Source of the DNA: Escherichia phage UE-M6
Direction: 5' to 3' (one strand)
DNA length: 64,000 bases
Sequence record: PP301343.1
Below the pieces are notes generated by a model that searched no databases, had not been told where the DNA came from, and saw only the letters and a list, made by a program, of their open reading frames with translations. The translations under genes and the position numbers were made by a program. Positions 2,541 to 58,129 of the stretch are shown in pieces. How positions within the stretch are numbered: the stretch's first letter is position 1; every line of letters begins with the position of its first letter.

Positions 2541-4811
2541 ATGGAACACCAAGACACTTTTAAGCCTTTACCAGACCCGGCTCAATCAGAGAAGTTAACG
2601 GACTGGAAGAAGGAACCAAGTATCCAATTACTGAAGGGTGATTTGGAATCTGCTAAACCTGCTCACGATGCAATCATGGCACAGATTCGTGAGTGGAATG
2701 ATTTAATGGAAGTAAAGGGTAAGGCTAAACCCCCAAAGGTTAAGGGACGCTCGCAAGTCCAGCCTAGACTGGTTCGCCGTCAGGCAGAGTGGCGTTATGC
2801 TCCATTGTCTGAACCATTCCTCTCGTCTAACAAACTATTTAAGGTAACTCCGGTTACTTTTGAAGATGAGTTAGCTGCACGCCAGAATGAGCTAGTTCTT
2901 AACTACCAATTCCGTACTCAGCTTAATAAAGTAAAACTGGTAGATGATTACGTGCATAGTGTCGTAGATGACGGTACTGGTATTGCTCGTATCGGTTGGG
3001 AACGTAAGACTATTAAGATTAAAACAGAAACTCCAGTCTTCCAGTTGTATCCAATTGAGAACCAGGAACAAGCAGATGTTCTCCAACAGGCTTTGCAGCT
3101 TCAGGCAGAGAATCCCCGTGAGTATGACGAAACAATGCCAGAAGATATCAAAGAAGCTGTTAACTACTTCAATGAAACTGGAGAAGCTACTTATGCAATT
3201 CAGACAGGGGTCACTGAAGTAGAAGTAGAAAAAGCACTGGTTAACAGACCTACCGTTGAAATGCTTAATCCTAATAACGTAGTTATTGACCCGAGCTGCA
3301 ATGGTGATTTGGATAAGGCTCTGTATGCAGTCATTTCCTTTGAGACTTGCAAAGCAGACCTTATGAAAAACAAAGACCGTTATCACAACCTAGATAAAAT
3401 TGACTGGGAGAGTTCCAGCCCCATTACTGACCCAGACCATGAAAGTAAAACCCCTAGCGATTTCCAGTTTAAGGATGCACTTCGTAAGAAGGTAGTTGCT
3501 TATGAGTACTGGGGATTCTACGACATCAATGATGATGGTTCACTGGAACCAATTGTTGCTACCTGGATTGGTTCTACTCTTATTCGTATGGAGAAGAACC
3601 CATTCCCAGATGGTAAGTTACCATTGGTAGTTGTTCCTTATATGCCTCGTAAACGTGAACTCTATGGTGAAGCTGATGCTGAATTGCTAGGAGATAACCA
3701 AGCAATTCTTGGTGCAACCATGCGTGGGATGATTGACCTGTTGGGCCGAAGTGCAAATGGTCAACGTGGTTATCCTAAAGGGATGTTAGATACCCTGAAC
3801 CGTCGTCGATACGATGATGGACAAGACTACGAATATAACCCAATGCAGGGCAATCCTAGTCAGGCCATTATGGAACACAAGTTCCCTGAGTTACCCCAGT
3901 CGGCAATAGTAATGACTCAGATGCAAAACCAGGAAGCAGAAGCACTAACGGGTGTTAAAGCATTCTCGGGTGGTGTAACTGGTGAAGCTTACGGAGATGT
4001 AGCTGCTGGTATTCGTGGTGTACTAGATGCAGCATCCAAACGTGAGATGGCAATCCTTCGTCGATTAGCTAAGGGTATGGCAGACATTGGTACTAAGATT
4101 TGTGCAATGAATGCTGTGTTCTTATCTGAGAAAGAAGTAGTACGTATTACTAACGAGCAGTACGTAGAGATTAACCGTGAAGACCTTAAAGGTAACTTCG
4201 ACATTGAGGTTGATATTAACACTGCTGAAATTGATAACCAGAAGTCCCAGGATTTGGGCTTCATGGTTCAAACACTAGGCAACACAGTTGACCAGTCTAT
4301 TACGTTATCTCTTGTAGCTAAGATTGCAGAACTTAAACGTATGCCAGACCTTGCTCATGAGTTACGTACATGGCAACCACAACCAGACCCTATGGAAGAA
4401 CAGCTTAAGCAATTGGCAATTCAGAAAGCACAGCTTGAGAACGAAGAGCTGCAAAGTAAGATTGCACTCAATATGGCTAAGGCTAAAGAGGCTGCTTCTA
4501 GTGGTGACCTTAAAGATCTGGATTATCTGGAACAGGAATCTGGTACTAAACATGCTCGTGACATGGAAAAACAAAAAGCACAATCTCAAGGAAACCAGAA
4601 CCTTCAGATAACTAAGGCGTTGACAACACCTACTAAAGAAGGTGAAACTACCCCCAACATATCTGCTGCTGTTGGATATAACGCTTTGACTAATGGGAAC
4701 TCTATACCAGAACGTGACTTAGCTGCACAACAAGACCCAGCTTATTCACTTAGTTCCCAATTCTATGACCCTAGCCAAGACCCAGCATCGGCTCTTGGCA
4801 TGAACTTGTAA
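2541..4811 (+). CDS. Portal protein (N4 gp59-like)
   Basis: 756-aa ORF, size and position upstream of scaffold and capsid genes; strong coding signal. Confidence 0.8.
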
Positions 4812-14416: not shown

Positions 14417-17400
14417 TTGAACAGGAAACATGCTATGTCAACATTTGACCGTCTGGCAGGTTTCGCAGACAGCATCACTAATGCTAAGCAAGTCGATGTC
14501 TCTACTGCAACCTCTCAGAAGCAAGCTGCACAAGGGCAAAGCCCTTTCCAATTAACCCCAGAGAATGCTTACAATCTCCAAACTGGTCGTGTAGGTAATC
14601 TTGGAATCGGTGCATTCGAACCAGGTTCACTTCAGGCAGATTTCACTCAAGCCTCCCCATTAGAAATTCTTAATAAATACGGTAATGAGCAAGGTCTACA
14701 GATTCTTAATAGCCGAGCTAATGCTGCTGATGCTGTACGTCAGGACTTATCTAAACAACGTACTAACGCAGAAGCATTTGGTGATACTCTTTCTGGTGTT
14801 GGTCTTGGTGTTGCTAATACCCTTGTGGGCATTGCTGCTCTTGGCACAGGTCTGGTCAATGATAATGCCGGGGCATCCATTGCTTCCGGTATGGATTGGC
14901 TGAATGAAGGGGTACACAATCTACAGTCTGATGCTCTGAATGCTACCCGTAAGGTTGTTCAGAATCAGAACCAGATTTCTGCACAAAAGAACCAGAGACT
15001 CTACGAAGAAGATATTAAAAATGGTGAGAACGATTTAGTTGCCTCCCTGTCTCGTATTGGTCGTGATGCTTTTGATTCTGTTGCTAATACACTTAATAAT
15101 GGTATGGCTGCTACTGATGGGCTGAGTGAAGGTGTTGGTTCTCTCTTTACCGGTGGTCCATTAATTCGTGGTGTATCTGCACTCGGTAAAGTAATGGTAG
15201 GTGGTGATAAAGCTGTTAAGGGTATTACCTTAGCTGCTGAGTTAGGTTCACGTCCTGCACAGGTTGCATTGTCTGCTGGTCGTGTTGCTGCACCTGCTAT
15301 TGCAATTGGTGGTATGGAAGCTGGTGGTGCATACCAACAGACTGCTTCCGAAATCATGAAGATGTCCCATCAAGAATTGGCAAGTAAGTCTCCTGTTTAT
15401 CAACAGCATATCGCTGATGGTTTATCTCCTGATGAAGCACGTCGCCAAACTGCATCTGAAACGGGTATCATTGCTGCTGGCTTAACTGCTCCGGTTGCTG
15501 CTGCTACTGGTCCTCTGGTATCCAAATTTGAACTTAACCCACTTAAGGTAGGTTCGCTGGCTGGTGCTGGTTCTAACATGCTACGTGAAACAGTAGAAGA
15601 AGGTATTCAGTCTGGTACAAGTCAGTTTGCACAGAACAAGGCAATTCAGGGTAATGTAGATGCTAAGCGTGATTTGCTTAAAGGTGTCGGTGAGCAAGCA
15701 GGTCTTGGTGCACTCTACGGCTTCGGTAGTGCTGGTGTTGCTCAGGCTCCAGGTACAACTGTTAAAGCTGTTGGTGCTTCTGCTGGGCCTGCTTTACGTA
15801 CTACTCTGGCTGGTGCTTCTCTGGTTGGTAGTGCATTAGCAAAAGCTGCCTCTCCTATTACTAACATCCTGGTTCAGCGTGGCGAAGAAGTTGCTAAGCG
15901 TAATGAACAAGCTTCCCCTGTATCTGATGCTACGGTTAATGCTGCTGCACAAGAAGCTACTGCTCAAGCAGAACAAGCACAAGCAACTGTACAAGAAGCA
16001 GTAGATGCAATGGATATTTCTCCTGAAGAGAAAGCTGCTGCTACTCAGTATGCTGCTGACTTAACTCAGGCAATGAAATTTGACCCAGTAGAACTGGAAC
16101 AAGCTAACCCAGCAATCCGTGAAGCTGTTTCTGGTTCCACTAACCGTGTTGAAGCTATTCAGAAGATGGCTGACCTGGTTAATACTGCCGAAGACCCTAA
16201 CGTTCAAATGGAAGCTGCAATCCAGATGTATGACAACATCATGTCTATGGATAGCTTCATTAACCGTGATCCTGGTGCTTTAGCTAATCTGGAACAGGGT
16301 TCTCCTGCTGCTAATATTGTTGACCAGTTCTCCGGCCTGATGGCTAACGTTCAGAATACACCAAAGGTACTTCGTGCATTCCGTGCCATCCATTCTATGA
16401 TTCAGGAACAGGCTGAAGCAGGTAAACTGAAAGCTACCGAAGAAGCTAACCAAGCCCAAGCAAACAACATTGCTATGGCTGCTGATATGTCTCCAGAAGT
16501 ACTGGATGCAGACTCAGTGAACATGGTTCTGAAACATGCAAGTGAAGGTAAGATTACACTGGGGAATCGTCAGCGTGCTGCCCTGCAATCTGCTGCTGCT
16601 CTATTGCAAGGAGCACGAGAATTTGACGCTAAAGCAGAAGAACTAGGCTTACGTCCTCAAGACATTGTTAGTAAACAGATTAAAACCGACGAGTCTCGTT
16701 CTAATGAAGGTCAGTACTCTGCGTTGCAACATGCTAAACGCATTCGTTCTGCGTACAACTCTGGTAACTTCGATTTGGCTTCCGCTTACCTCGACGACTT
16801 TATGAAGTTCGCCCAGCACATGCAGAATAAGGTCGGAGCGTTGAATGAGCATCTGATTTCTGGGAATGCGGATAAGAATAAGTCTGTCCATTATCAGGCT
16901 CTTACTCCCTCCCGTGAATGGGTACGTAGTCGTACTGGTCTTGGTGTCAATCCGTATGATACCAAGTCGGTTAAGTTTGCCCAGCAAGTAGGACTGGAGG
17001 CCAAAACCGTAGCTGATATTGCTAACGCACTTGCTACGGCTTACCCGGAGCTTAATGTTTCTCATGTGAAGGTTACTCCATTAGATTCACGTCTGGACAA
17101 GCCTGCTGCCCAGGTAGTTAAAGAGTTCCGTCAAGGTGGTCTTGATGCCACTCAGTCTCAACAGACCAATGAACCAGTGAATCAGGTTGATGAAACTCCT
17201 GCACCAGCGCAAGAGACTACTACTACTGTACAGCCTAAAGCTAAACCAGTGGTAGAAAATAAGACTGTTCCTGTTAAAGAGGCTAGTTCAAAAGCAGAAG
17301 AAGTCTCTACTACTAAGTCTGAAACAGTAGATGCTACCCTCACCAATGAGGATACCACTCAAAAAGTAGCTGAAACTAAAACGGAAATGGAAACAGTTTT

Positions 17401-20400
17401 CCCTGTCTATAACAATGACAAGACACCGAACCAGTTCCTGAAATCATTTACCCTGCCGGAAGAACCTAAGTCTCGCACCATTGGTTCTGAATCCCCTTTG
17501 ACTGATATTAAGCAAGCACTGTCTTCTACTGCACGCTTTGAAGCATTCACTCAAAAAGAAAATAACGCTCTCACAAGTGATGTGATTAAGCGTTATCAGG
17601 ACTTAATGGGCTTTGGTGAAACTCTGAAGACTACCCTGTCTGATCGTCTGGCTAAGTTTCTTGCTAATAAGAACGTTGGTAAACGCTTTGCAGAAGGCAC
17701 AGAGGCTAACCGTTGGGTAGGTGGTAAGTTACTTAATATCGTAGAGAAAGACGGAGACACCTTTAAGTTCAATGACCAGTTGTTAGAGACTGCTGTACTT
17801 GCTGGTCTGCAATGGCGACTGACTGCTACACAGAATGCTGCTGTTAAAGACATGAAAGATGTAGCTGCTATTACTGGAGTAGAAGCATCCTTGTTACCTG
17901 AAGGTATCCTGGCTGAATTTGAGAATGCTCAGACTCTGGTTGAAGCTACTAACTCACTGGCTCAAAAGATTGAATCTTACTGGGGATTGAATCGTAATCC
18001 TAATGCACCACTGGGTTATACCAAAGGTATTCCAATGGCAATGGCTACAGAGATTCTGTCTTCTCTCATTGAGATGGGTGAAGTTAAAGAGTCTATGCTT
18101 GATGTGTCTGAGATTGACCCAGACTCTAATAAGACCGTCGGTCTGTATACCATTGAGAAGCTGGATGATAACGATGCCATTAACAAGTTCCCTACTGCTA
18201 TCGAGGAAGCTGTTCTCGTAGAACCAGAAGAGAAAATGTACTTTGGTGATGATATTCCTTCCGTGGCTCAAACTCAGTTACGTAACCCTGCTGTTAAGAA
18301 TACCCCAGAGCAGAAAGCTGCTCTTAAAGCAGAACAGGCTACCGAGTTCCGTGTACACATGCCGATGGTTAACTTCTATGAAGCATTAGGTCGTGACAAC
18401 ATTCTGGAACTGATGGGTGCTGGTACTCTTAATCCTGAACTGCTGAACGTGAACACTGCTAAGTCACTGGAGGGTAAAAACCTGTCAGTGTCTATGGCAT
18501 ATGATTCCCTGTTCGGTGTAATCAACCAGTTACAGGAACAGGAGAATGGTCTGGATACGCCTATTCACTATGGTTACAACATGACCCGTGTAGGTCGTAT
18601 GCAGATGTTAGGTAAGAACAACCCACAGTCCAGCAAGCTGGTTCGTGAAGCAATTCTGCCAACCTTCTCTACTATCGACTTAAGTAATGAAAACAGTCAG
18701 ACGTTCTCTGATTTCCAGTTAGGTCTGTCTCAGGCATTAGGTATCAAGGTTCATAATATGTCCCGTGAAGCTATGTCTGAAAAACTGACCAAAGCTCTGG
18801 AAGGTAATTTGAAACCTGCTGTTGATATGATGGTTGAGTTTGATAAGTCCGGGCACTTACCAGCCGATGCAGTAGATATTCTTAAGACATCTCTGGGTGG
18901 TGATAAATCATTCGTAGCTCTTATGGCTCTTATGGAGTATGCCCGTTACCTGAACAGTGATGACCGTGCCAACTTTAATACCCCACTGTACGTTGAAGCC
19001 GATGGTGTAACCAACGGACCAATCAACGCAATGGTATTAATGACTGGTGGTAAGTTCACTTCAGACTGGATTAAGAATACTGCTAAAGGTGGTCTGTTCT
19101 TCGGTAAAGCTGGTAAGACTATGAATGAACATCGTTCACAGGATGACAGTGTTGACCTGTATGAAGCATCTACCAATGGTCTGCAACAAGCACTTAATGA
19201 GTTACGTACTACTTACCGTAACAACGTTCCGGTTATGAACCAAATGAATCATCTTCAGAAGTTAATGGACCTGTTTATTAAAGACTTTAACCTGAATGAA
19301 GACGGTACTCTGGACCTGAAACGTGGTATCGCTAAAAACCCACTGACCATTACCATCTATGGTTCAGGTGCTCGTGGTATTGCTGGCAAGATGGTTAGTG
19401 CAATTACTGACACCATCTATGAACGATTCAGTGATGTTCTGCAAGCTCGTGCTGCTGACCCTAGCATTTCCCCAGCTATGGCAATGTTTGGTAAGGAGGC
19501 TGCGTCTGAGGCTGATGCTCAGGCTATGCTGGATACTTTCCTTACATCTATGGAAGCACTGACTGGTAATGTTCCAGTTATGCGTAAAGGTGAATTGTCT
19601 ATTCAACAGGTAGAAGGTGCTCTGACTGGTAAGTTAGACCCTCAGAAGTTTACCGTATCGGGTAATGCCCTGAAGAACTTACAAGAGAACATGCTTCACC
19701 TGTTCGTTGAACCAATGCGTACTGGTATCCGGAATACTGTTGGGGAAGGTCTGATGCATTCTACTGAGAACTTGCAGAAGGCTACCCAGATTCAGTCTTT
19801 GGTTCTACAAGACATGTTCCAACAAGCAGTACAGGCTAAGCTGGCAGAAAAAGAAAAAGACCCAACCTGGAAGAAGGGTGATTTCTTAACACAGAAAGAA
19901 CTGAATGAAATTCAGGAATCATTGTCTCCACTGGCTCCAATGATTGAGACTGGTTCACAGACTTTCTATATTGCTGGTAGTGAGAATACTGATGTTGCTA
20001 ACCAGGTACTGGCTACCAACTTAGATGACCGTATGCGTGTGCCAATGAGCATCTATGCTCCTTCTCAGGCAGGCGTTGCAGGTATTCCATTTATGACCAT
20101 TGGCACTGGTGATGGCATGATGATGCAGACTCTTTCTACTATGAAAGGTGCTCCGAAGAATACCCTGAAAATCTTTGATGGTATGAACATTGGTATCAAC
20201 AACATCACTGATGCAAGTCGTAAAGCTAACGAGGCTGTATACACTTCCTGGCAGGGTAACCCTATCAAGAATGTTTATGAGTCTTTTACTAAGTTCATGA
20301 AGAACGTAGACTTCAGCAAACTATCGGATGAAACCAAACAGGCTATCGCTAAATCTGCTCTGGAATATGACCAGCGTGAAGGTGCTACCAATGACCTGTT

Positions 20401-47343: not shown

Positions 47344-47786
47344 TAGAATGACCTTAGATAGTTGGTGATACCACTACGGTTTTCTGTAATTTTCTTAACC
47401 TGAACATATACCAGCTTAAACTCACTACGGGGTAGTTCTTGTAATACTGCTACACCTTCAGTAAGGGCCACAGAACACGCTACAGCGGTTTCTTTTTTAA
47501 AGGAGTATAAGTCTTCATACATGAGGGCTTCATACTCCCTGCGGAGCATACAGAGAGCATCTCTTGCCTTATCACTTACTTCTTGTGAACCAGCAGACAT
47601 AGCTAAGCTGTATATGATAAAGATTTGTTCAAAAACAAAGTCCAGTAATCTATCAGGATTGTTAGTCCCCATGAATAATTTTGATGTGTAGGAACGGGCT
47701 TTACGGTTGAGTTCATACTCATCCTCTATGCCTTTATTATAAAGAACAGGATTTCGCTCCCTTTTCCGTAGGAATGGGATACGCAT
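47343..47786 (-). CDS. Hypothetical protein
   Basis: 147-aa ORF, start overlaps the stop of the upstream gene. Confidence 0.45.
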   Translation of the reverse strand: MRIPFLRKRERNPVLYNKGIEDEYELNRKARSYTSKLFMGTNNPDRLLDFVFEQIFIIYSLAMSAGSQEVSDKARDALCMLRREYEALMYEDLYSFKKETAVACSVALTEGVAVLQELPRSEFKLVYVQVKKITENRSGITNYLRSF

Positions 47787-53982: not shown

Positions 53983-54028
53983 ATGAATTTCCTCATAAGT
54001 AAATAGCAGGATTAGTATACATGACATG

Positions 54029-54058
54029 TAAAAAAATAAACCCTCCGTTAAGAGGGTT
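54029..54058 (-). terminator. Rho-independent terminator upstream of the decoration-like gene
   Basis: aaccctc/gagggtt hairpin followed on the - strand by tattttttt. Confidence 0.55.
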
Positions 54059-54254
54059 AGTTGTTTACACAGTAGATAGCAAAAGCTATCCATCCTGCCA
54101 TTACAAAGCATCCTAGTGAGTATGCTCCATAGTAGCAGTAAGCAAACTTAGACTTGTGGGCACGAACTATCGTAGCCAGAATCAGTACAGATAAAACTAT
54201 CAGTATTAGCTGAGAGATTACTTCAAAATTGATAAGCATAGTTGCTACCTCCAA
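54057..54254 (-). CDS. Small membrane protein
   Basis: 65 aa, two hydrophobic helices; 3' end overlaps the terminator. Confidence 0.35.
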   Translation of the reverse strand: MEVATMLINFEVISQLILIVLSVLILATIVRAHKSKFAYCYYGAYSLGCFVMAGWIAFAIYCVNN

Positions 54255-54297
54255 GCAAAAAATAAAGCCCCACTCCCGAAGGAATGAGGCTAGTTTA

Positions 54298-55515
54298 TTA
54301 ACTTAATGCATAATCTGTTTCTAGAATGTCTTGCCAGAGGCTGTCATCCAGCTTACCAGCAGAGAACTCTTGTCCCAGTACTTGAGACAGAATGAAGCCC
54401 AGTAAGTCACTCTTAGCAATGTCAGACAGAATCTGATTGTACTGACGACGCAGGTCATTACCATAGTTAGGGTGGCAACGGAAGCAATCATGTACAGTCA
54501 TTACAGGGAATGGTTTCTTAGGCATAGTGTCGATCATATCTGCTACTACTTGACGGTCTACCAATGCAATAGTATTCGGGTCAAGGAAGTCTAGGATAGA
54601 TAGCGACAGGAATCCTGACCTTTCATAATGATTCCAGATTTCCATAGTCTTCTCTTGGTTCCCCTCAATAACGGGGTATTCACTTGGCCCGATATCGCAC
54701 AGTTCCCGTACATAGGCAACCAGTTTAGGGTCGAAGTTACAACGACGCAGCATCTCACGTACTACCATCCCATCAATAGAGTGAGTGATGTTAGCAGAGA
54801 GCATACGGGTCTTCTCTTCAGTACCCTGAACCATACGAGTGATGTCAAATGGTTTACCCAAGAAGTTAACAGTCTGTACTTCAAGAACCATGACTTTAAT
54901 GACAGCATGGAAGTTGTCAGGGAGTACCCATATGTAACGGTTAGCATCCGGGTTACCACATTGCAGTAAGAACTTGTTAAGTGCCCAAGGACCACTTGCA
55001 ACTGTTTCCATTACATTTTCAAAAGTCTTGAGACGGATACCTTCCCCGAATACTTCTTTAGGTTTGGCTTCTGAACCGTAGAATGCAGTCATAACTGCCT
55101 GCTTGGTATCACTACGTTTAATACGGGATGCTTCACCAAGGATGTCCAGCATCTTGTGATATATAACTGTATAAGCATCACGTCGTAATGGCTTACCATT
55201 CTCTCCCATGTAATTAACTACGTTACACAGTTCAGCAGCAGAGCGGTCACCAGTCAGGCAGGCCAGTAACTGCAAGCCTGATGATGTAGCATCCAGGGCT
55301 ACGGCATATCCGATAGGCTTACCAGCTTTCATATCTTTCCATGCGTTTACACCAGCATAGAACAGTGCAGATTCCTCAGCTTCATCTACCAGATTAAGCA
55401 AGTTAGCTTCATTCTCATCGAACCAAGCAATACGCTCATCCCAGGTCTTTTTATCCAGACCATAGTTATTGGCGATGTCTACTTTCAGGTATTCTTTAGC
55501 GGTTAACAGTTGCAT
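54298..55515 (-). CDS. RNA polymerase II catalytic (large) subunit, T7-like (N4 gp16-like)
   Basis: Motif A-like DATSSGLQ and motif C-like HDCF; start at the internal Met with an AAGGAA RBS. Confidence 0.8.
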   Translation of the reverse strand: MQLLTAKEYLKVDIANNYGLDKKTWDERIAWFDENEANLLNLVDEAEESALFYAGVNAWKDMKAGKPIGYAVALDATSSGLQLLACLTGDRSAAELCNVVNYMGENGKPLRRDAYTVIYHKMLDILGEASRIKRSDTKQAVMTAFYGSEAKPKEVFGEGIRLKTFENVMETVASGPWALNKFLLQCGNPDANRYIWVLPDNFHAVIKVMVLEVQTVNFLGKPFDITRMVQGTEEKTRMLSANITHSIDGMVVREMLRRCNFDPKLVAYVRELCDIGPSEYPVIEGNQEKTMEIWNHYERSGFLSLSILDFLDPNTIALVDRQVVADMIDTMPKKPFPVMTVHDCFRCHPNYGNDLRRQYNQILSDIAKSDLLGFILSQVLGQEFSAGKLDDSLWQDILETDYALS

Positions 55516-55561
55516 TTTATGTTCCTTAGCGTCTGAGCCATTTGGCTCGCATAGTGGGTAG

Positions 55562-56068
55562 TTATTGACCGTGACGGTTAGTATAGCCAGCACCATTCTG
55601 GTTCAAGGCTTCTAACATGTCGGCTCGTGCATCACATGCTTGTTGGAATGCGAACTCGTAGCCGTATTTCTTAACTGAGAATACTTTACACCTCTGTTTC
55701 TTTGTGATGTTGTCCGTACATGTAGCACGCCAGAATAACCCCTTTGGTGAATCCCATAGAGATACACCAGTTACCCCAGATTTATTGTCTGAACGTTTAG
55801 TAGAGTTACGCAGGTTGACTACAATGGGAACACATCGCAAGTTACACCAGCGGCAGTCCGTTCTGATACCGTTGATGTGGTCAATTGTATAACCAGCAGG
55901 GATAGATCTATGCTTCATTTCCCACAACCAACGGTGAAGGTATAAGATTTTATTTCCACGAGAGATGCGAATGTACCCAGTGGCACTATTCGCTGCCTCC
56001 GGTGGATGGGCTACAGCAAGTTCATCAACTGACTTGTTCCAGTAGCCCATTGGCATACGCTCTTTCAT
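55562..56068 (-). CDS. HNH homing endonuclease with AP2 domain
   Basis: HNH motif IDHINGIRTDCRWCNLR and AP2-like SGVTGVSLWDSPKGLFWRA; inserted between the two RNAP II subunit genes. Confidence 0.75.
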   Translation of the reverse strand: MKERMPMGYWNKSVDELAVAHPPEAANSATGYIRISRGNKILYLHRWLWEMKHRSIPAGYTIDHINGIRTDCRWCNLRCVPIVVNLRNSTKRSDNKSGVTGVSLWDSPKGLFWRATCTDNITKKQRCKVFSVKKYGYEFAFQQACDARADMLEALNQNGAGYTNRHGQ

Positions 56069-56886
56069 TAATCCTCATTAACAAGTTCTTTTTCTGCAAA
56101 TTCTAGGACTGCTTTATTCCAAGAAGTCCCTTGGTAGTTACAGTGATAGCCCTGAGCGTAAGTACGCCCACGTTTGTCATATTTGTGACCCAGTGAGAAG
56201 TTATTACCTTCTTTGGTCACTAACTCCATTACTTCTTTAGCGGTACGGCTGTATTTCTCAAAGGCTTTAACACGCTTCTCATAGTCCTGACGGGTTTCAC
56301 CCTCTTTAGGCTTATCCATGTTAGGACGAGAGTCTTTTACATAGTTAGCAACGTCCCAGTTAATACTTAGACGCTGATTATTCATACGGTTGATATGGTC
56401 AAGACAGACATCCATCTCATGATGGTTCTTCTTGAGGATGATACTTCCCCTGCTCTTGTAGTAACCTGTGTCACGGTTACACAGAACAGGCTTAGGAGCA
56501 CTTACGATGGGTAATGGATACTGGAATGCTTCCAGTTCCATCTGAACATCTTCACTAATCTCATAGATAACACCGAACTTGTCGATGGTAGGGTCATAGT
56601 TGAAGCAGTCATTCTCTGCCATCTTATACAGACAGTCAGCGATGTACTGAGCATCATCTGAATGGCTCATAAGAGAGCCAATCATAGTCTGAAGGTCAGC
56701 ACGTTTATGTAGGGCAATCTGCACCATTGCATCAATGAGCAGCTTATAATCAATTTCCAAATAGGCAGCGAATGCCTTAAAGTCAATTTCTTCGGAGTCC
56801 TCAAATTCCTTCCTCATGCGAGGGAGTAATTGATTTTTGTTGAAAAGAATTTCGAGTTGCTTCTGATGTTCAATGGATGAGTACAT
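56068..56886 (-). CDS. RNA polymerase II small subunit, T7-RNAP N-terminal-like (N4 gp15-like)
   Basis: Segment DKRGRTYAQGYHCNYQG resembles the T7 RNAP DWRGRVYA...NPQG region; AGGAGA RBS; preceded by a hairpin promoter. Confidence 0.7.
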   Translation of the reverse strand: MYSSIEHQKQLEILFNKNQLLPRMRKEFEDSEEIDFKAFAAYLEIDYKLLIDAMVQIALHKRADLQTMIGSLMSHSDDAQYIADCLYKMAENDCFNYDPTIDKFGVIYEISEDVQMELEAFQYPLPIVSAPKPVLCNRDTGYYKSRGSIILKKNHHEMDVCLDHINRMNNQRLSINWDVANYVKDSRPNMDKPKEGETRQDYEKRVKAFEKYSRTAKEVMELVTKEGNNFSLGHKYDKRGRTYAQGYHCNYQGTSWNKAVLEFAEKELVNED

Positions 56887-56915
56887 CGCTTATTCTCCTA
56901 AATGTGATTAATAAC

Positions 56916-56934
56916 CAAAAGCTGCGGAGCAGCT
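56916..56934 (-). promoter_or_regulatory. Putative N4-type vRNAP hairpin promoter upstream of the RNAP II genes
   Basis: Template-strand hairpin agctgc-GGA-gcagct (6-bp stem, 3-nt loop) with CCAAAAG flank; loop-centre G at 56927, stem G three positions away; predicted +1 about 56916. Confidence 0.5.
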
Positions 56935-57202
56935 ATTACCTAACGTTTAGTCCAAAAGGTAATACGAATACTGTTCTCTTGACCAAGGTAGTCAATACGT
57001 ACATATAAACCATTACCACTAAACTCGTTATTTTTCTTCTGGTAAGGTCATACCAGACTACGCATAGGTATTTTAATTAAACCAGATATGTGACCTAGTT
57101 TAGTACGATCCTTTAGTTCGTTTTGTAATGCACAATAGATATCATGCCGTGTAAGTGCTCTGGCTCTGACTTGAGCAGCCCATAGTTCTTCATAAGTCAT
57201 TA

Positions 57203-57553
57203 TTAACTCCAGTAGTTGTAAGCATCGCCTAAATGTTTACGCCATGCTTCGGGTAACAGTACATTTCCAGTTACATTGATGAACTGGTATGGGTCCAGGT
57301 AGTCATTACTCATGACTTTGAAATCCCATTGTGGATTGGCAGATGCATAGGCAATAAAACCTTCAATGAAGCCATAAATAGCACCTTCTTTAATACGGTT
57401 ACCATTGCCATCTCTTACCGGGATAGCAAAGCTATTACCATAGTGACCATAGGCCATACCCCAGCGAGCACCATGTTTCTTATAAGCTAACTTGGCAGAA
57501 GCATTGGTATGCTGCCCAAGCGTATTAGTAGTAAATACTAAGATTTCTTTCAT
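57203..57553 (-). CDS. Hypothetical early protein
   Basis: 116-aa ORF, Gly-rich, first gene upstream of the RNAP II promoter region. Confidence 0.45.
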   Translation of the reverse strand: MKEILVFTTNTLGQHTNASAKLAYKKHGARWGMAYGHYGNSFAIPVRDGNGNRIKEGAIYGFIEGFIAYASANPQWDFKVMSNDYLDPYQFINVTGNVLLPEAWRKHLGDAYNYWS

Positions 57554-57557
57554 TTAG

Positions 57558-57878
57558 TTAATCCTTTGGTTTTAATACCTGGAATGCGAACACAGGACGT
57601 TTACTACGCCACTGGTTCATAGCTAGTTCACTAGTTTCAGAACCATCATGTAAGTCATAAATGAATGAGATTACATAGTCTGGTTCTTCCGGGAAGTTCT
57701 CTGTAGAGAATGGTAGACCCGATTCTTTAAGGATAGGAACCAGTGGAGATTCAGCATTGCAGTAGAGGGTAAATTCTTCATTGAATGCCTGACTTGTTTG
57801 AGATACGTAATCAATATTACGCATCATTTTATCTACATCTGTAAATGTAGAATCATGAACTACTAGAATAGTTTTCAT
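57558..57878 (-). CDS. Hypothetical early protein
   Basis: 106-aa ORF. Confidence 0.45.
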   Translation of the reverse strand: MKTILVVHDSTFTDVDKMMRNIDYVSQTSQAFNEEFTLYCNAESPLVPILKESGLPFSTENFPEEPDYVISFIYDLHDGSETSELAMNQWRSKRPVFAFQVLKPKD

Positions 57879-58129
57879 ACCTTTCTCAATGTCCCATAGA
57901 TGTTATTATCGACAATACTCAAATCACAAAAACCAATTTCTTCTTGTCTCCCAGAGGATACCCAGATATTGTTTTCTGTTAGCTTAGGCTTCTTAGAGAA
58001 TCCTATTAATGAGGTATTAGCACTTTTATATTGACGTGGTAATAAAGCTATATACTTAACCCAGTGAGGTACTTGAATGGTGTGCTTCATATATTCCACA
58101 GTCTTGCCTGTAGGATATGTAATAATCAT
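57875..58129 (-). CDS. Hypothetical early protein
   Basis: 84-aa ORF overlapping its neighbour by 4 nt. Confidence 0.4.
   Translation of the reverse strand: MIITYPTGKTVEYMKHTIQVPHWVKYIALLPRQYKSANTSLIGFSKKPKLTENNIWVSSGRQEEIGFCDLSIVDNNIYGTLRKV

Follow-up and report, generated by a model that had tools for sequence, protein, structure and literature searches.

Locus and source phage

The genes for the two subunits of RNA polymerase II are found on the minus strand of the window, by which we mean the whole 64-kb stretch of DNA that was analysed. The first of them (56068-56886, 272 aa) encodes the small, N-terminal subunit and has 67% identity to N4 gp15; in relatives this gene is annotated as an RNA polymerase subunit. 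The catalytic subunit is encoded by a gp16-like gene (54298-55515, 405 aa) with 68% identity to N4 gp16 and a match to Pfam RNA_pol (PF00940). An ORF of 168 aa on the same strand (55562-56068) stands between the two and belongs to the HNH homing endonucleases (Pfam HNH_3, 2e-14), as its UE-S5a counterpart is also annotated; an AP2 match in this ORF (29.2 bits) is below the Pfam cutoff of 33.3. Directly 3' of the gp16-like gene there is an intrinsic terminator (54255-54291, minus strand), whose RNA folds at -18.5 kcal/mol and is followed by UUUAUUUUUU. On the other side of the operon, a template-strand hairpin (56920-56934) and a broken ORF of 86 codons (56940-57200, minus strand) precede the gp15-like gene.

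The region 54000-58000 has 98.8% identity to Escherichia phage UE-S5a and 90-95% identity to 22 further Gamaleyavirus records (e.g. IME11, ECBP1 and St11Ph5). The phage belongs to Gamaleyavirus, Enquatrovirinae, Schitoviridae; it is a G7C-like coliphage and a relative of N4. With the 4-kb query, UE-S5a and UE-M3 were matched over the full length and many relatives were covered only to about 85%; the HNH insert may be absent from the latter. The HNH gene at the gp15/gp16 junction of G7C is annotated as endonuclease VII-like.

Since the genes in 54000-58000 are on the minus strand, the window is the reverse complement of the usual N4 map. Its early genes are carried by the minus strand, and leftward transcription uses the plus strand as template. 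Nucleotide 1 of N4 aligns with the window near 61452 (TGG(T/C)GGGGCTACAC...), so the window crosses the physical left genome end, which implies a permuted or concatemeric assembly. If the left end is at about 61452, the sequence from 61455 to 64000 would be part of the opposite genome end. The end of the UE-S5a record falls close to this position too. As in N4, some 4.5 kb lie between the left end and the hairpin ahead of the gp15-like gene, and the hairpin is oriented toward the early genes; first injection of this hairpin-bearing end is assumed from N4.

A template-strand hairpin upstream of the gp15-like gene

The plus strand from 56914 to 56934 reads AACCAAAAGCTGCGGAGCAGCT, in the wider context ...TAATAACCAAAAGCTGCGGAGCAGCTATTACC.... 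It contains the inverted repeat AGCTGC-GGA-GCAGCT (56920-56934), a perfect stem of 6 bp in which 56920-25 are paired with 56929-34 around a 3-nt GGA loop (56926-56928). Sequence, fold, covariance model and shuffles all point to a promoter hairpin on the template strand. When the template strand is folded as single-stranded DNA, exactly this hairpin is obtained, with -5.7 kcal/mol and z = -3.0. The initial annotation had described the same agctgc-GGA-gcagct element about 30 nt upstream of the gp15-like start codon and gave 56916 as its first position. The distance agrees with our analysis, in which 33 nt separate the near edge of the hairpin from the ATG and the predicted leader has 30 nt; 56916 is the predicted +1 C, and the hairpin itself begins at 56920.

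The early promoters of N4 have a GC-rich heptamer centred at -11 with inverted repeats on its flanks. The virion RNA polymerase (vRNAP) specifically recognizes -11A/G, -10G, -8G and +1C on the template strand, extrusion and stability of the hairpin require a G:C closing pair together with the loop 5'G and 3'A, and four A residues act as a ruler from the stem to the start (PMC4496689). Every base requirement listed in that paper is present in register at 56916-56934. Taking the loop centre 56927 as -11 and counting toward the plus-strand 5' end, the G-R-A loop is formed by A56928 (-12), the purine G56927 (-11) and G56926 (-10), the closing pair is C56925:G56929 with C at -9, and G56924 is at -8. 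The A-rich spacer AAAA occupies -4 to -1 (56920-56917), its -4 position (56920) being the stem base. It is followed by C56916, the predicted +1 template base, whose distance of 11 nt to the loop centre is that of N4 (PMC4496689, PMC13492108), and by C56915 at +2. In a 2026 cryo-EM study of N4 vRNAP on P2, the template oligonucleotide had a CCAAAAG...GCGGAGC layout (PMC13492108), and the window hairpin has the same layout.

RNA is predicted to start at 56916 with GG (GGUUAUUAAU...). The predicted 5' leader of 30 nt (56887-56916, minus strand) has the sequence GGUUAUUAAUCACAUUUAGGAGAAUAAGCG and resembles the N4 leader. It contains a Shine-Dalgarno sequence AGGAG (56899-56895, minus strand), 8 nt ahead of the gp15-like ATG (56886-56884). 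A sigma-70 promoter for gp15 was also considered and none appeared in a scan of 56887-57200 on the minus strand; across the region, promoter-like sites of this kind are fewer than expected.

The ORF upstream of the hairpin

The hairpin had been placed in a roughly 300-bp noncoding gap, and this part of the initial annotation does not hold. The supposed gap is filled by an ORF of 86 codons (56940-57200, minus strand) with an in-frame TGA at codon 51, which corresponds to an intact CDS of 86 aa in UE-S5a (UES5a070). The two copies differ by three substitutions, one of which is the TGG->TGA change at codon 51. According to tblastn, UE-S5a and four other relatives have an intact copy, while one relative (L083, 1428-1682) has a separate stop replacing tryptophan at codon 7. 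G7C and N4 do not have this ORF, and there gp14 is directly ahead of the promoter. With 5 nt between the stop codon of the ORF (56942-56940) and the hairpin, the intergenic spacer really measures 53 nt. It looks like a dispensable accessory gene in decay, as far as these sequences can tell.

Three hairpins of one kind in the early region

Perfect hairpins that combine a GGA loop with 6 bp or more of stem occur just three times in the 64 kb, with centres at 56927, 60680 and 61362. All three are on the plus strand and within 4.5 kb of each other. The second is a P2-class hairpin AAGACGC-GGA-GCGTCTT (60672-60688, +1 C at 60669) upstream of a gp2-like ORF (60176-60658, minus strand). The third is a P1-class hairpin ACATGC-GGA-GCATGT (61355-61369, +1 C at 61351) upstream of a gp1-like ORF (60989-61312, minus strand), the start of which aligns with the start of N4 gp1. 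The P1 and P2 promoters of N4 and their counterparts in the window share with the hairpin ahead of gp15 the GC-GGA-GC core, a stem of 5-7 bp, the distance of 11 nt between loop centre and +1 C, and the strand. They differ from it in their stem sequences and in the start region, which is GGAT or GGAC in the P1/P2 class and GGT(A/T)AT in 8 of the 12 aligned sequences of the class ahead of gp15.

For independent detection we used a covariance model (R1) built from 14 P1/P2-class hairpins of other genomes, N4 P1 and P2 included. Its training set had neither a gp15-proximal site nor any window sequence. Run over the whole 64-kb window with filters off, R1 reported exactly three sites, all in minus-strand orientation: 60664-60694 (44.8 bits), 61346-61376 (35.0 bits) and 56911-56941 (29.8 bits, E = 5e-5). 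They are the sites upstream of the gp2-, gp1- and gp15-like genes, respectively, and the best non-promoter match in the window reached 13.4 bits (E = 0.65).

In principle the palindrome might have arisen by chance or might serve some other purpose at the DNA level, for example as a protein operator, and take no part in initiation. The bare GCGRAGC heptamer is indeed not enriched in the window (5 found, 5.6 expected), and the exact 15-mer is present in 67 stretches of IMG/VR, many of them in unrelated viral contigs and most in contigs of a length that does not fit N4-like genomes. We therefore used 2000 dinucleotide-preserving, hairpin-aware shuffles in place of the bare heptamer count. GCGRAGC within a stem of at least 6 bp was observed three times against a mean of 0.028 in the shuffles, and none of the 2000 shuffles gave three. 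Together with the E-value of R1, the positional orthology with N4, the conservation and the covariation described below, this leaves the chance reading with a negligible probability. Two further heptamers, GCGGAGC at 47541 and GCGAAGC at 63540, were rejected as promoters, as they have no perfect stem of at least 5 bp and are unreported by R1.

Comparison with N4 and other phages

In the first 10 kb of N4 (NC_008720), the heptamer GCTCCGC is found twice, at 562 before gp2 and at 4551 before gp15. The latter is part of ...AAGCTGC-TCC-GCAGCTT-TTGGTAATTAAT...ATG, with the centre at 4554, 49 nt upstream of gp15. Primary mapping of the N4 promoters was reportedly done by Haynes & Rothman-Denes in 1985 and by Glucksmann in 1992. 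The hairpin scan and R1 both gave exactly three sites in the first 10 kb of N4, at 96, 565 and 4554. Because three promoters, P1-P3, are mapped in the leftmost 10 kb of N4 (PMC4496689), the site at 4548-4566 is P3 by elimination.

N4 P3 and the window hairpin agree in six stem pairs, the loop, the AAAA spacer and the template CC at +1/+2. They also share the place before the gp15-gp16 pair, the distance of about 4.5 kb from the left end and a terminator after gp16. They differ in that the N4 stem has 7 bp and that of the window 6, and the leader is 39 nt in N4 but 30 nt in the window. In N4, gp14 precedes with a gp14-gp15 spacer of 74 nt, whereas in the window the broken ORF of 86 codons separates gp14 from the promoter. 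The HNH gene between gp15 and gp16 is an insertion of the window phage relative to N4. The hairpin is thus very probably the orthologue of the N4 early promoter P3.

As a terminator follows gp16 both in the window and in N4, P3 would serve a discrete transcription unit. The terminator at 54255-54291 is likely its 3' end, about 2.65 kb from +1, and the predicted unit is made up of gp15, HNH and gp16. It means that the P3 hairpin would define a discrete immediate-early operon, gp15-HNH-gp16, in the window phage, and that a homing endonuclease rides within the RNA polymerase II operon.

A similar promoter is annotated in the sister phage KP8 of Klebsiella, where P4 (AAGCAGCTCCGCTGCTTGTGGG) is a predicted hairpin promoter before the gp15 homologue, assigned by similarity to N4 (PMC6950046, Table 1). 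Its 22 bases are found exactly in one IMG/VR locus (L093), and the first 19 in two others (L090 and L092). KP8 P4 is placed like the window hairpin, ahead of the gp15 homologue, but its stem is AAGCAGC instead of AGCTGC, a compensatory T:A->A:T change. The early hairpin promoters of Pseudomonas phage LUZ7 have been mapped by ONT-cappable-seq (PMC9163698). They have in common with the window a template-strand hairpin, a 3-nt loop and a virion RNA polymerase as reader; unlike the window, LUZ7 has nine early start sites, and its hairpin centres and starts are 13-14 nt apart.

Conservation among relatives

A search of IMG/VR with an alignment of 20 gp15 sequences gave 80 loci, whereas a single-protein search had given only 9 close relatives. 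One sense-strand GC-TCC-GC hairpin was found upstream of gp15 in all 15 loci with gp15 identity of at least 67%, at -38 to -46 in 11 of them and at -274 to -300 in four. Among the 65 loci with gp15 identity of 57% or less (L095-L159), none had an N4-type GC-TYC-GC hairpin near the gene. R1 gave the same 15-versus-0 split on the 80 loci. Weak hairpins of 4-5 bp were seen 250-320 nt upstream of the gp15 homologue in a few distant loci, and R1 reports none of them. Judged by these sequences, the RNA polymerase II genes of these distant schitoviruses must be served by differently placed or shaped promoters. The arrangement of P3 before the RNA polymerase II genes is kept across the N4/G7C/KP8 group and not in the more distant schitoviruses sampled.

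The window hairpin was aligned with 11 distinct orthologues (alignment A4, 12 sequences). GC-TCC-GC and the GG at +1/+2 are invariant in 12/12, and this GG is also present in all 14 P1/P2-class promoters, making 26/26 aligned promoters in total. In two of the six stem pairs both partners differ between sequences (C:G<->G:C and T:A<->A:T) and no cell is unpaired, though the orthologue hairpins were gathered with a perfect-stem filter and the 100% pairing is partly by construction. The unbiased evidence for conservation is the presence of the hairpin in every close relative, together with the stem differences between lineages.

The same alignment bears on the idea that the hairpin is mainly an RNA element, an intrinsic terminator or attenuator for upstream transcripts rather than a promoter. 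A terminator scan does list it (6-bp stem, four G:C pairs, tail TTTGGTTATT), its RNA form folds at -11 kcal/mol, and it comes directly after the stop codon of the preceding ORF, at the 5 nt given above. But an intrinsic terminator combines a G+C-rich RNA hairpin with a conserved U-tract, and here the tail, UUUUGGUUAUU in the window, is unconserved and in several orthologues not U-rich (TTAGGAGAG, TAAGGAAGT, TAAGGAACC, TTTCGG, GTGG), while the loop, the closing pairs and the +1/+2 GG are invariant. The real terminators nearby are far stronger, with -14 to -18.5 kcal/mol and T-runs of 5 to 6. Moreover, the same motif occurs as P1 about 90 nt from the left genome end, without an upstream gene in between. 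We consider a role mainly in termination most unlikely, and termination as a minor second function possible. An element with both functions, in which the DNA hairpin is P3 and the RNA hairpin with its U4 tail attenuates P1/P2 read-through transcripts, is a reading to which we give a low but not trivial probability. If it were true, such attenuation would insulate the RNA polymerase II operon and leave its transcription almost wholly to its own promoter.

In the isolate collection, a 91-nt query across the hairpin matched 72 records, 39 of them with coverage of at least 80%, and the listed features were CDS only. No promoter annotation was present in the four GenBank records examined (including N4, G7C and the closest relative, UE-S5a): three have CDS only, and the G7C record has CDS and one terminal-repeat misc_feature. 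The value of the present result is mainly in annotation, the promoter being unannotated in the examined records of the genus.

Possible read-through from the upstream promoters

It could also be that the hairpin is a genuine P3-type promoter of small contribution, with a middle promoter or P1/P2 read-through accounting for most of the expression of the RNA polymerase II genes. In favour of this, the genes between 60032 and 56940 are tightly packed on one strand, and no strong terminator is predicted between about 59300 and 56940. However, a strong terminator is located right after the gp2-like gene (60147-60166, minus strand; -14.1 kcal/mol, UUUUAUUUUU), and about 850 nt beyond it a second hairpin with a T-run (59308-59321, minus strand) is another candidate. 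Both would limit P1/P2 read-through toward gp15. The retention of the hairpin in 15/15 close relatives with compensatory changes argues for functional selection, and in N4 gp15 and gp16 belong to the early genes, which vRNAP transcribes (PMC4496689, PMC13434306). A minor role for P3 is therefore very unlikely, while P1/P2 read-through may add to the gp15/gp16 mRNA.

Virion RNA polymerase and proposed mechanism

A cognate polymerase is encoded in the window. The virion RNA polymerase ORF (14417-24787, plus strand; 3456 codons from the first possible start) has 67% identity to N4 gp50, and 71% in the polymerase domain. Of the residues with reported hairpin contacts, K114, R119, W129, K268, K849, K850, D901 and R904 are kept, and the sole change is K267 -> N. 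This vRNAP is predicted to be the enzyme which reads the hairpin.

The initial annotation had also proposed that RNA polymerase II is under direct vRNAP control. Our data on the anatomy and orientation of the hairpin, its orthology, its conservation with compensatory changes and the recognition residues of the polymerase support this proposal, through the base match with N4, the strand, the gp15/gp16 identity and the vRNAP residues, with initiation itself carried over by orthology. Hairpin extrusion, the need for SSB and gyrase, and the exact position of the start are inferred by analogy with N4.

After injection, negative supercoiling would extrude the inverted repeat as a cruciform. Host SSB would melt the non-template hairpin, while the very stable d(GC-GGA-GC) mini-hairpin of the template would stay on the plus strand. 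The injected vRNAP would then bind this hairpin, with -11G recognized by tryptophan stacking and -10G, -9C and -8G through the specificity loop, and would initiate RNA opposite C56916, 11 nt from the loop centre. Leftward transcription would pass through the gp15-like, inserted HNH and gp16-like genes to the terminator at about 54260. The second (middle) RNA polymerase would thereby become an immediate-early product, made without host RNA polymerase.

Control of RNA polymerase II by vRNAP is the textbook scheme of N4 and already known, and the understanding of N4-type transcription is unchanged by our results. What they add is an unannotated promoter in the genus, its restriction to the N4/G7C/KP8 clade among the sampled loci, and the accessory genes around it.

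Accessory sequences and variation of the early region

In four of the relatives (L083, L086, L087 and L093), about 235-260 nt of extra sequence is found between the hairpin and the gp15 start, and it opens with a Shine-Dalgarno-like AGGAG or AAGGA right after +1. This suggests that a small gene has been inserted under P3 control in these phages. Judging by the upstream ORF, the extra sequence in 4/15 relatives and the HNH gene in the operon, small accessory sequences seem to land preferentially in the flanks of P3. Genes landing downstream of P3 would turn immediate-early.

The count of N4-type hairpins in the early region is not constant among these phages: the window and the first 10 kb of N4 have three each, and some relatives four, for example at 283, 1090, 1346 and 5727 in L009 and at 95, 509, 1234 and 5227 in L008/G7C. 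Four early promoters are predicted in KP8 (PMC6950046). A 2026 paper names four early promoters in N4 as well, P1-P4 (PMC13492108), whereas R1 finds three in its first 10 kb.

The predicted P2 transcript of the window starts with GGATGATTTAAATG (60656-60669, minus strand). It has a mini-ORF ATG ATT TAA at +3 which abuts the gp2-like ATG, and the equivalent place in N4 (576-588) reads ATG AAG TAA TG. Such a two-codon mini-ORF at P2 may be a conserved device for translational coupling.
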